Of a stretch of 64,000 nt of DNA, positions 4,975 through 7,680 are shown piece by piece. Numbering within the stretch: position 1 is the stretch's first letter; each line of letters begins with the position of its first letter. Source of the DNA: Candidatus Poribacteria bacterium. GTDB taxonomy: Bacteria; Poribacteria; WGA-4E; UBA9662. The position numbers were made by a program, and so were the translations under genes. The notes beneath the pieces were generated by a model. That model saw only the letters and a program-made list of their open reading frames with translations. It was not told the DNA's origin and searched no databases. Location of the stretch: the NCBI GenBank assembly GCA_036339735.1, contig JAYZAL010000026.1, positions 24,929 through 88,928 on the forward strand. Direction: 5' to 3'.

Positions 4975-5907
4975 TTGAATTCGCCATTTACTAGTTCGTT
5001 TTCCTCTCTTTTAACTGAACAGGAAAATGAAGATTCAGTCGACATTGACTTAAAATCGAGTACTGAAATTGTTTCAATCTTCCAGAAAGAGGATCAAAAG
5101 GTGCTGTCTGCTGTTGAAGAGCAGGCTTCCGCTATTGCGACTGCTATTGATATGGTGGTGATGGCCTTTCGAAATGGTGGACGACTTCTCTACATGGGAG
5201 CAGGAACTAGTGGCCGGTTAGGTGTATTAGATTCTTCAGAATGTCCACCAACATTCAATACTGAACCAGGTCAAATCCAAGGACTAATTGCTGGGGGGGA
5301 CCAAGCTTTACGCCGATCAGTAGAAACAGCCGAAGATAGCCAGAAAATGGGGAGCCAGGTCATCCGGGACAACTCAGTCTCTAACGTTGATATCGTAGTA
5401 GGCATTGCTAGCAGTGGACGGACACCTTACGTTTTGGGCGGACTAGAACAAGCTCATCTGCTTCGAGCCCAAACTATTCTTATATGTTGTGTTCCCTCTA
5501 GTCCAAGTGATGCCGATATTAATTATATTGACCATTATATTCGACCCCAGGTTGGTCCAGAAATTATTACAGGTTCAACTCGTCTCAAGGCAGGAACAGC
5601 CACTAAGTTAGTTTTAAATATGTTGACGACCGGAGCTATGATTCAAACAGGGCACGTTTACGGTAACTTGATGGTCAATATGCAAGCAAGCAATAGTAAA
5701 ATCAGAGATAGGGCAATACGGACTGTAATGAGTGTTACTGGCTGTGAACGACCAACAGCGGAGTCTGCTTTAAATCAGGCTGATGGGCGTGTGAAGGAAG
5801 CGATTGTCTGCTTGATTCGGGGAGTCGATGTGTCAATAGCGACCGGATTATTAGAGGCGGAAAATGGCTTTTTACGGCCTGTTTTAGCCAACCCAGATTC
5901 CAGCTAA
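4975..5907 (+). CDS. murQ: N-acetylmuramic acid 6-phosphate etherase
   Basis: GAGTSGRLGVLDSSECPPTF, GPEIITGSTRLKAGTATKLVLNMLTT, YGNLMV. Confidence 0.95.
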   Translation: MNSPFTSSFSSLLTEQENEDSVDIDLKSSTEIVSIFQKEDQKVLSAVEEQASAIATAIDMVVMAFRNGGRLLYMGAGTSGRLGVLDSSECPPTFNTEPGQIQGLIAGGDQALRRSVETAEDSQKMGSQVIRDNSVSNVDIVVGIASSGRTPYVLGGLEQAHLLRAQTILICCVPSSPSDADINYIDHYIRPQVGPEIITGSTRLKAGTATKLVLNMLTTGAMIQTGHVYGNLMVNMQASNSKIRDRAIRTVMSVTGCERPTAESALNQADGRVKEAIVCLIRGVDVSIATGLLEAENGFLRPVLANPDSS

Positions 5908-6426: not shown

Positions 6427-6475
6427 GACTTTATCCTCTATACATTGCTAGTTTTTGACTAACGGAGACCAAATT

Positions 6476-7207
6476 TTGAAAATTGCTTACTTCGATTGCT
6501 TTTCTGGTATTAGTGGAGACATGACACTAGGTGCTCTAGTCGATGTTGGAGTTGATCCTCAACATATTACAGAAGAGTTAACTAAACTCAATGTAAATAA
6601 TGAATTTACTTTGACTTTTGAACATACGAAAAAACAGGGGATTTCCGGTACAAAAGCCTCGGTGAATCAAACGAAAGATTGCCATCATAGTCGTCATCTG
6701 ACTGATATTTTTTGCTTATTGGACGAAAGCAAATTAGATGAAAAAATAATCGGTCAGTCGAAAAAAATTTTTGATCGGTTAGCTACAGCAGAGGCTACTG
6801 TTCATCAGATGCCCAAGTCAGAAGTTCATTTGCATGAAGTTAGCGCGATCGATTCAATTGTTGATATTGTTGGTTCGGTTATCGCTTTAGATATATTGAA
6901 TGTTGAAAAAGTATTTGCTTCACCGATTTCGGTTGGTACCGGATTCGTTCGTTGCTCTCACGGACTAATGCCGGTTCCAGTGCCAGGAACAATGGAATTG
7001 TTGAAGGACGTTACAATTCGACAGACCCAAATCCGAAAAGAACTAGTCACACCAACAGGGGCAGCAATTGTTACTACATTAGCTGCTGGTTTTGGGCCAA
7101 TGCCAGAATTGACGGTCATGCAAACGGGTTACGGTGCTGGTAGTCGGGATCTACCTGATACACCAAATCTCCTTAGGGTCATTATCGGAGAAAAAAAAAC
7201 GGCTTAA
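6476..7207 (+). CDS. larC: Nickel-pincer cofactor nickel insertase LarC, N-terminal part (larC1)
   Basis: YFDCFSGISGDMTLGAL, EVHLHEV..IDSIVDI, HGLMPVPVP, ELVTPTGAA, GYGAG. Probable TTG start at 6476 after GGAG (the ORF track starts at 6455). Confidence 0.93.
   Translation: MKIAYFDCFSGISGDMTLGALVDVGVDPQHITEELTKLNVNNEFTLTFEHTKKQGISGTKASVNQTKDCHHSRHLTDIFCLLDESKLDEKIIGQSKKIFDRLATAEATVHQMPKSEVHLHEVSAIDSIVDIVGSVIALDILNVEKVFASPISVGTGFVRCSHGLMPVPVPGTMELLKDVTIRQTQIRKELVTPTGAAIVTTLAAGFGPMPELTVMQTGYGAGSRDLPDTPNLLRVIIGEKKTA
7191..7200 (+). promoter_or_regulatory. Putative -1 ribosomal frameshift site (A_AAA_AAA within AAAAAAAAAC)
   Basis: A9 run just before the larC1 stop (GAA AAA AAA ACG GCT TAA). A -1 slip joins larC1 to larC2. 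Confidence 0.7.
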
Positions 7208-7680
7208 TCCCGGGAAAAACCCAAATGTCGTCTCTAATTGATCAGATTGTGGTCATCGAAACGAACGTAGACGACCAGTCAGCTGAAATTACGGCCTGGG
7301 TTATGGATCAACTGCTCGCAACTGGAGCTTTAGATGTTTTCTTAACGCCCATACTAATGAAAAAAGGTAGACCCGCCACTAAAATAACAGTCCTTTCAAC
7401 AATAGAACAACAATCTGCATTAACTCAATTACTTCTACAACAAAGCACCACTTTTGGTGTTCGCTCTTATTTAGCAGATCGTCAGAAACTCTCCCGAGAT
7501 TTTATTGAAGTAGAAACTGAATGGGGGATAGTAAAAGCTAAGCGTGGATTTTTGAATGACTCCATCACGAAAATTGTGCCCGAATACGAAGATTGTAGAC
7601 GGCTAGCAGAAGCCAATCAAGTCCCACTGCGAACCGTCTACGAGACCGTTATACAGGAAATCAAACTAGATGAAAATTAG
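7198..7680 (+). CDS. larC: LarC C-terminal part (larC2), in the -1 frame and open from the A9 run
   Basis: IETNVDD, GALDVFLTPILMKKGRP, STTFGVR, PEYEDC motifs. The -1 frame has no stop between 7192 and ATG 7225. Confidence 0.88.
   Translation, partial: NGLIPGKTQMSSLIDQIVVIETNVDDQSAEITAWVMDQLLATGALDVFLTPILMKKGRPATKITVLSTIEQQSALTQLLLQQSTTFGVRSYLADRQKLSRDFIEVETEWGIVKAKRGFLNDSITKIVPEYEDCRRLAEANQVPLRTVYETVIQEIKLDEN

Follow-up and report, generated by a model that had tools for sequence, protein, structure and literature searches.

A probable, conserved poly-A recoding site at the hinge of larC in Candidatus Poribacteria

In a stretch of 64,000 nucleotides (nt) from a Candidatus Poribacteria bacterium, here called the window and meaning the whole of the DNA analysed, the gene larC is divided between two frames at nine consecutive adenines (A9). 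LarC is the nickel-inserting enzyme in the synthesis of the nickel-pincer cofactor. The run, at positions 7191-7199, is very probably a kept recoding site of a known kind, placed at the hinge between the two halves of the protein (LarC1 and LarC2), whichever machine slips there, and full-length LarC would accordingly be expected among the products of the organism. The poly-A device of LarC is already known; what is new here is its occurrence in a new phylum, in which it is deeply conserved. For the window alone the result is confirmatory and not surprising. Annotation pipelines will call such a locus two genes or a pseudogene, while for Poribacteria, and for at least 95 further species genomes, the proper reading would be one recoded larC that gives LarC1 and full-length LarC.

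The first open reading frame (ORF) of the locus matches positions 1-237 of the Pfam model PF01969 (E = 4.6e-92, 309.5 bits against a cut-off of 22.1) and the NCBIfam model of LarC1, TIGR00299 (209.4 bits against a cut-off of 90). Of two candidate starts, TTG 6455 and TTG 6476, the latter is the more likely; as read off the sequence, it stands 9 nt past a GGAG at 6463-6466. At the junction the window reads ATC GGA GAA AAA AAA ACG GCT TAA, and the -1 frame from 7198 continues as AAC GGC TTA ATC CCG GGA AAA ACC CAA ATG, open up to the TAG at 7678-7680. In this frame PF01969 positions 241-375 are matched (E = 2.6e-46, 158.9 bits), as is the LarC2 model NF052512 (145.5 bits against a cut-off of 50), and the product resembles solved LarC2 structures (PDB 6bwo from Lactiplantibacillus plantarum, E = 2.2e-35; 12bi, E = 4e-22). 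The two frames cover positions 1-237 and 241-375, so that the model is matched without loss across the break. The -1 frame is closed upstream by a TAG (7174-7176) and the zero frame downstream by the TAA (7205-7207), so that the change of frame is confined to 7177-7204, where the A run is the sole slippery element. The fused product would comprise about 401 residues from TTG 6476, or 408 from TTG 6455. The original prediction, made from the window alone, had described larC as split at an A9 run with larC2 in the -1 frame and had given the fused protein about 401 residues; all its coordinates agree with the sequence and the ORF list, and this length fits a start at TTG 6476. The features of the locus and its neighbours are collected in Table 1.

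Table 1. Features of the larC locus of the window and of its neighbours (window positions).
Feature	Position	Strand	Basis or remark
larC1 frame (LarC N-terminal, nickel-side domain)	6455..7207	+	ORF list, Pfam PF01969, NCBIfam TIGR00299
LarC2-frame TAG, upstream closure of the -1 frame	7174-7176	+	17 nt before the run
A9 run, slip site, with heptamer A_AAA_AAA at 7192-7198	7191-7199	+	sequence
larC2 frame (-1 relative to larC1): linker NGLIPGKTQMSSLIDQ and CTP-binding (cytidine triphosphate) C-terminal domain	7198..7680	+	PF01969, NF052512, PDB 6bwo
Zero-frame stop TAA, end of free LarC1, two codons past the run	7205-7207	+	sequence, ORF list
LarC2-frame ATG, possible unconserved internal start	7225-7227	+	listed ORF 7225..7680
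larC2 stop TAG	7678-7680	+	
SIS-domain protein, GKRP/MurQ kind	4975-5907	+	Pfam
PhyH dioxygenase part with many HEAT/PBS-lyase repeats, 503 residues	7703-9214	-	Pfam

The window genome holds 146 A or T runs of nine or longer, 119 of them within open frames of at least 150 codons (76 sense poly-A and 43 poly-T), and 71% of its lysine codons are AAA. An A9 alone is therefore not unusual, and the special part is the frame break: in a census of this genome the larC run was the only run of nine or longer at which two long frames abut. Long frames in different registers also abut at four T8 runs (C19:73206-73213, C38:153742-153749, C79:83366-83373 and C101:30263-30270), where genes may simply end or further slippage may occur.

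Relatives share the break. In a survey of 176 Poribacteria genomes, LarC was present in 171. It appeared as two matches meeting near model position 238 in 34 genomes; three others have an in-frame TGA, G064 has three pieces, G041 is cut by a contig end, and the rest show a single uninterrupted match. All 34 split genes were retrieved. They represent 12 genera (g1, g3, g8, g10-g16, g21 and g22), and their assemblies span single-contig chromosomes and metagenome-assembled genomes (MAGs) of hundreds of contigs. Every split gene carries A9 (26 genomes) or A10 (8 genomes) directly past Gly-Glu/Lys-Lys, and every one needs a -1 shift. Between the A9 and A10 forms only the next base differs (C against A or G, read in the -1 frame as Asn or Lys), hence both keep the same frame relation and represent a single site in two states. 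For 18 genomes (17 of g8 and the one of g13) the shift can be placed within the run itself, as a TAA of the -1 frame overlaps its first two A's. At the same site 48 inspected unshifted Poribacteria genes have A7 at most, with the runs broken (GAG AAG AAG, GAA AAG AGA and the like). Conservation of the split and of the A run among relatives, which the earlier proposal of a frameshift had named as a check, is borne out by these 34 genes.

LarC2 is under purifying selection. The ratio of nonsynonymous to synonymous substitution rates (dN/dS) is 0.08-0.14 in split clades, at a synonymous rate (dS) of about 0.6-0.7, with 0.09 in g1 and g3 together; the values of fused clades, 0.11-0.21, are comparable. 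In a LarC tree built with FastTree from 82 rows (excluding G042b and the broken genes of G064 and G041), the outgroups among the Poribacteria carry fused genes that lack the run, and the split state is scattered over four families and two sister lineages. This topology implies about five to seven losses or about seven gains of the split and is not decisive between them. In the fused g6 gene, GAA AAG AGA AGC resembles an earlier A10 that A-to-G changes have interrupted.

The survey also returned genes of other kinds. In G064 (g8; L139, C9:15903-17273) larC is broken into three parts (Pfam positions 1-110, 119-191 and 237-375) and the PNLLR motif is absent; this is probably a decayed copy. The outgroup genome G042 has two full-length fused copies (C167:5036-6181 and C21:14586-15713). 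An in-frame TGA stands in the His-rich larC linker of three genomes (L157 in G081, L158 in G107 and L159 in G110), in contexts such as ..KHQPHT*TSQ.. and ..KHEHDH*VSD.., and separates LarC1 from LarC2 in yet another, third manner, possibly with readthrough at a low rate.

A well-described counterpart is larC of L. plantarum. According to PMC13510736, its LarC1 (residues 1-271) and LarC2 (residues 272-412) come from distinct ORFs that a programmed ribosomal frameshift connects. A plasmid lar operon of this species (larB, a LarC-family gene, larC and larE) served for comparison. Its LarC1 ends in TTC GAA AAA AAA AAC TAA, an A10, and LarC2 follows in the -1 frame, whose translation (K-LSQQIVNR-TADAVLMIEAN...) agrees with the crystallised LarC2 of PDB 6bwo at 142 of 143 aligned residues, and a Lacticaseibacillus paracasei plasmid has an identical junction. 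With the window gene the L. plantarum gene shares the family, the hinge past ...LR-x-x-x-G/F-E-K-K, the poly-A run, the -1 relation and a zero-frame stop within one or two codons. The two differ in run length (A10 against A9 in the window) and in setting, since L. plantarum larC belongs to a larB-C-E operon whereas the window larC stands alone, with larB, larE and a larA-like gene on other contigs. A trans-frame product is reported for L. plantarum (PMC13510736) and predicted for the window. By hinge position and -1 relation the Poribacteria site is the same device at the same hinge, and the likeness to L. plantarum drawn in the original prediction holds. In view of the distance between the phyla and of the fused, run-less Poribacteria outgroups, it was probably gained independently of L. 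plantarum.

Antonov et al. 2013 had already listed DUF111, which is Pfam PF01969 and thus LarC, among four new programmed-frameshift families; the cluster, annotated as two hypothetical genes with fused homologues, was drawn from the 1106 complete genomes of that year in a screen on A-rich heptamers, and reached 39% frame change at most in Escherichia coli reporters (PMC3711429). The yield of reporters grew with run length (A7 10%, A9 40% and A11 63%), and the choice between polymerase and ribosome is not settled in the part of the article that is accessible (PMC3711429). A search of the available literature returned no report on Poribacteria LarC or on transcriptional slippage in larC, with the limit that Table S2 of PMC3711429 may list these classes.

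To place the Poribacteria genes among other bacteria, species-representative genomes were scanned for A9 followed 25-55 nt later by codons for the motif ETN-x-DD, which gave at least 120 loci; frame state was assigned by a motif-anchored classifier. Among the matches listed, 111 loci had a LarC1-type motif in one upstream frame, while eight were not LarC and one was ambiguous. Hinges with A9 or longer needed a -1 shift in 95 of these 111 (A9 in 48, A10 in 45 and A11 in two), were in frame in 16, and in no case needed +1, again among the matches listed. Within the first 80 loci the -1 set includes Lactiplantibacillus, Loigolactobacillus, Apilactobacillus, many Clostridia, Halanaerobiales, Saprospiraceae, Poribacteria and an Actinomycetes MAG. 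By using a second scan that sampled runs of six or more A's, at least 30 loci passing the LarC1-motif filter were obtained (L312, with A7, was not LarC and was left out). Among the matches listed from this sample, hinges with A9 or longer were -1 split in eight of nine, against two of 20 with A6-A8. Both of the latter (L301 and L375, from Bacillota MAGs) have A7 followed by TAG (TTA AAA AAA TAG); a close relative of theirs, L226, has A9 at the same place. The in-frame A9-A11 hinges among the matches listed comprise L176, L179/L377, L237 and 12 further loci, and if the run slips, such hinges would lose part of their full-length product. Apilactobacillus micheneri has an in-frame A11, and A. ozensis an A11 at -1.

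Three readings would explain the locus by something other than recoding, and even taken together they carry little weight. The break might be a homopolymer assembly error, an alternative that the original prediction named, or the mark of a dead gene: indel errors typically fall at runs such as A9, and the window genome is a draft of 107 contigs. However, the same break is seen in 34 independent assemblies from 12 genera, in the plasmid record of L. plantarum and in at least 95 species genomes besides; A9 is also present in contigs from three more public runs (X3 from DNA, X16 and X17 from RNA libraries); and LarC2 is intact, with a dN/dS of about 0.09. An error is therefore rejected, the chance of this reading being close to nil. 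LarC1 and LarC2 might instead be separate polypeptides that assemble, LarC2 being started by re-initiation past the LarC1 stop, either at ATG 7225 or from a non-canonical codon. True two-gene arrangements with a Shine-Dalgarno (SD) sequence and ATG do occur in Bacillales (Paenibacillus cellulositrophicus, L168, and Niallia taxi, L169), cut at the same hinge directly past ...VGE; the window ATG lies eighteen nt past the LarC1 stop; and internal initiation alongside frameshifting is described for some clusters in PMC3711429. Yet the Bacillales genes have a true spacer with an SD-like stretch and ATG, and neither an A run nor a frame constraint. Within the genus of the window the codon homologous to ATG 7225 is ATT in G001 and AAG in G002. 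The LarC2 frame offers no ATG, GTG or TTG before the invariant ETN-x-DD motif in 22 of the 34 split genes, and none stands between the run and that motif in 27. From the run onward the -1-frame linker is conserved in length and sequence as in fused relatives (GEKK-NGLEQDQV against GEKKESGLESDQV), and separate polypeptides would leave the invariant A9/A10 and the strict -1 relation unexplained. Initiation at ATG 7225, the other way out that had been offered earlier, is discarded on these grounds, and two unlinked products are very unlikely in general. Phase variation at the DNA level, in which replication slippage would flip a population between A9, with LarC1 alone, and A10, with full LarC, is likewise improbable. 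In its favour, homopolymers are unstable, an A10 is found in the X15 contig, which comes from a slightly different strain, and in-frame A9-A11 hinges exist in other lineages (the 16 of 111 listed above). Against it, 34 of 34 Poribacteria consensus assemblies are in the "off" register and none is in frame with a long run, the X3 DNA has A9, and a cytoplasmic cofactor enzyme is in our judgement an unusual type of protein for phase variation.

With a recoding site accepted, the question passes to the machine that slips. Standard decoding would halt at TAA 7205 and release free LarC1. RNA polymerase may slip on the T9 template and insert one A, so that a share of the mRNAs would have A10 and would be translated straight through by normal ribosomes into a LarC1-LarC2 fusion; a ribosomal -1 slip on A_AAA_AAA would probably contribute as well. 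A fraction of the products would then be full-length LarC of about 401-408 residues with the junction ...VIIGEKK-NGLIPGK..., and the purpose of the arrangement would be to set an excess of LarC1 over LarC. We give polymerase slippage an even chance of being the main route. Both routes yield an identical junction peptide and DNA alone cannot separate them; from this identity we infer that the published protein evidence does not discriminate between them.

Several findings point to the polymerase, a route absent from the original prediction that explains the data at least as well. The run is never shorter than nine in the 34 split Poribacteria genes, whereas a slippery heptamer needs seven, and the A9 or A10 of all 34 is about as long as the RNA-DNA hybrid (8-9 or more), as in transcriptional realignment. 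Among the LarC hinges listed in the sample of six or more A's, the split goes with long runs (eight of nine at A9 or longer, two of 20 at A6-A8), reporter yield likewise grows with run length (PMC3711429), and the upstream and downstream stimulators of a ribosomal shift were looked for and not found, as set out below. One contig from an RNA library (X15, depth 21.9) has A10, while RNA contigs X16 and X17, the X3 DNA and three genomes of the genus have A9; these four runs are known as contigs only, in which minor variants are hidden, and no DNA is matched to X15. There is also a precedent in the A9 of Thermus dnaX, which acts by transcriptional realignment; this run inside the gene of Thermus thermophilus is described as giving two products and as needing neither hairpin nor SD sequence (PMC3711429). 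The gene is a different one, and its slipped transcripts lead to the shorter product, where those of larC would lead to the longer. For Thermus RNA heterogeneity has been shown, and for larC here the counterpart is the single A10 contig X15.

The E. coli dnaX signal is A_AAA_AAG with an upstream SD sequence and a downstream hairpin. The Poribacteria site resembles it in its heptamer of lysine codons and its -1 direction, and the A10 forms read A_AAA_AAG in phase, but the stimulators were looked for and not found. No SD core (GGAG, GAGG or AGGA) starts 10-20 nt upstream of the run in any of the 34 split genes; upstream of the run the window has AGGG at -16 only, and the GGAG that adjoins the run represents Gly-Glu codons and is present in 10 of 34. 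The 55 nt after the run fold in the window at -7.3 kcal/mol (z = +1.0), no better than shuffled sequences. Over 34 split, 45 fused and three UGA genes, these 55 nt showed no fold common to genera, in a model that leaves pseudoknots aside, and no excess stability (mean z of +0.15 in split against -0.47 in fused genes). The original prediction had proposed as stimulators an AGGG at 7175-7178, a GGAG at 7187-7190 and short stems (CGG/CCG and GGG-AAAAA-CCC, 7200-7222). All of these are present where it placed them; the SD-like elements are not conserved, and the stems form no stable or shared 3' structure. The correct phasing of the heptamer, also offered as evidence, proves uninformative, since any A9 run holds an in-phase A_AAA_AAA in every register.

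There are nevertheless clear points against polymerase slippage as the main route. Two of the three RNA-library contig sets (X16 and X17) have A9. Ten other differences separate the X15 contig from the window, so that it may come from a strain with a genomic A10, an equal reading, and DNA can occur in RNA libraries. The direction is uniform, with 95 hinges at -1 and none at +1 among the matches listed, as ribosomal -1 slippage predicts; polymerase slippage would demand a strong insertion bias to produce it. The two Bacillota MAG genes that are -1 split at A7 followed by TAG resemble a ribosomal site. The 119 runs of nine or longer tolerated in long frames indicate that A9 slippage is not very efficient in this organism. 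Lastly, the homologous L. plantarum site is called ribosomal in the literature (PMC13510736). A programmed -1 ribosomal frameshift, in which the mRNA would stay A9 and the Lys-tRNAs on AAA AAA (7193-7198) would slip back one base to resume with AAC GGC TTA into LarC2, is hence a serious possibility, though one we place below an even chance. In its favour are an in-phase A_AAA_AAA at 7192-7198, the -1 requirement in all 34 Poribacteria genes as in the 95 shifted hinges, A10 forms that read A_AAA_AAG or A_AAA_AAC in phase, the A7-plus-stop variants, the A9 kept in X16 and X17, and the published L. plantarum case. It is weakened by the missing SD core and by downstream sequences that behave like shuffles and are unlike between genera, by Poribacteria runs longer than a heptamer requires, and by the A10 of X15.

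The kept run, the one-way -1 register and the parallel existence of UGA-split and two-gene forms suggest that cells want an excess of LarC1 over LarC. Such an excess bears on the nickel loading of the LarC hexamer, which is described as having a core of LarC2, trimers of LarC1 and a flexible linker (PMC13510736). A broader proposal, which we hold tentatively and rate a little below even, is that the hinge signal of larC, that of L. plantarum included, is transcriptional slippage adding one A on runs of 9-11 in at least four phyla, that it sets the excess of free LarC1 over LarC, and that some Poribacteria reach the same end through a UGA in the linker. The phyla concerned would be Poribacteria, Bacillota, Bacteroidota (Saprospiraceae) and the one of the Actinomycetes MAG, with the register always one A short. 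The larC hinges form a large natural series of runs (A7, A9, A10 and A11, both in frame and out of frame) that could help to separate polymerase slippage from ribosomal slippage.

The window belongs to contig C26 of a 4.32-Mb genome in 107 contigs that is 92% complete. Other lar genes lie elsewhere in this genome: LarE on contig C104 (TIGR00268, 318 bits against a cut-off of 150), LarB on C64 (NF033503, 295.7 bits against a cut-off of 175) and a LarA-like protein on C6 with a weak Lar_N match of 33.7 bits. Given larB, larE and the weak larA-like gene, the pathway is presumed to be in use. The window larC is solitary between opposite-strand genes, and its neighbours, the PhyH/HEAT protein and the SIS protein, have no link to lar genes. 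Runs from 14 studies of seawater or marine metagenomes contain the segment 6455-7680, as do six RNA libraries, and genus g1 seems to be free-living in seawater, unlike its sponge-derived Poribacteria relatives.

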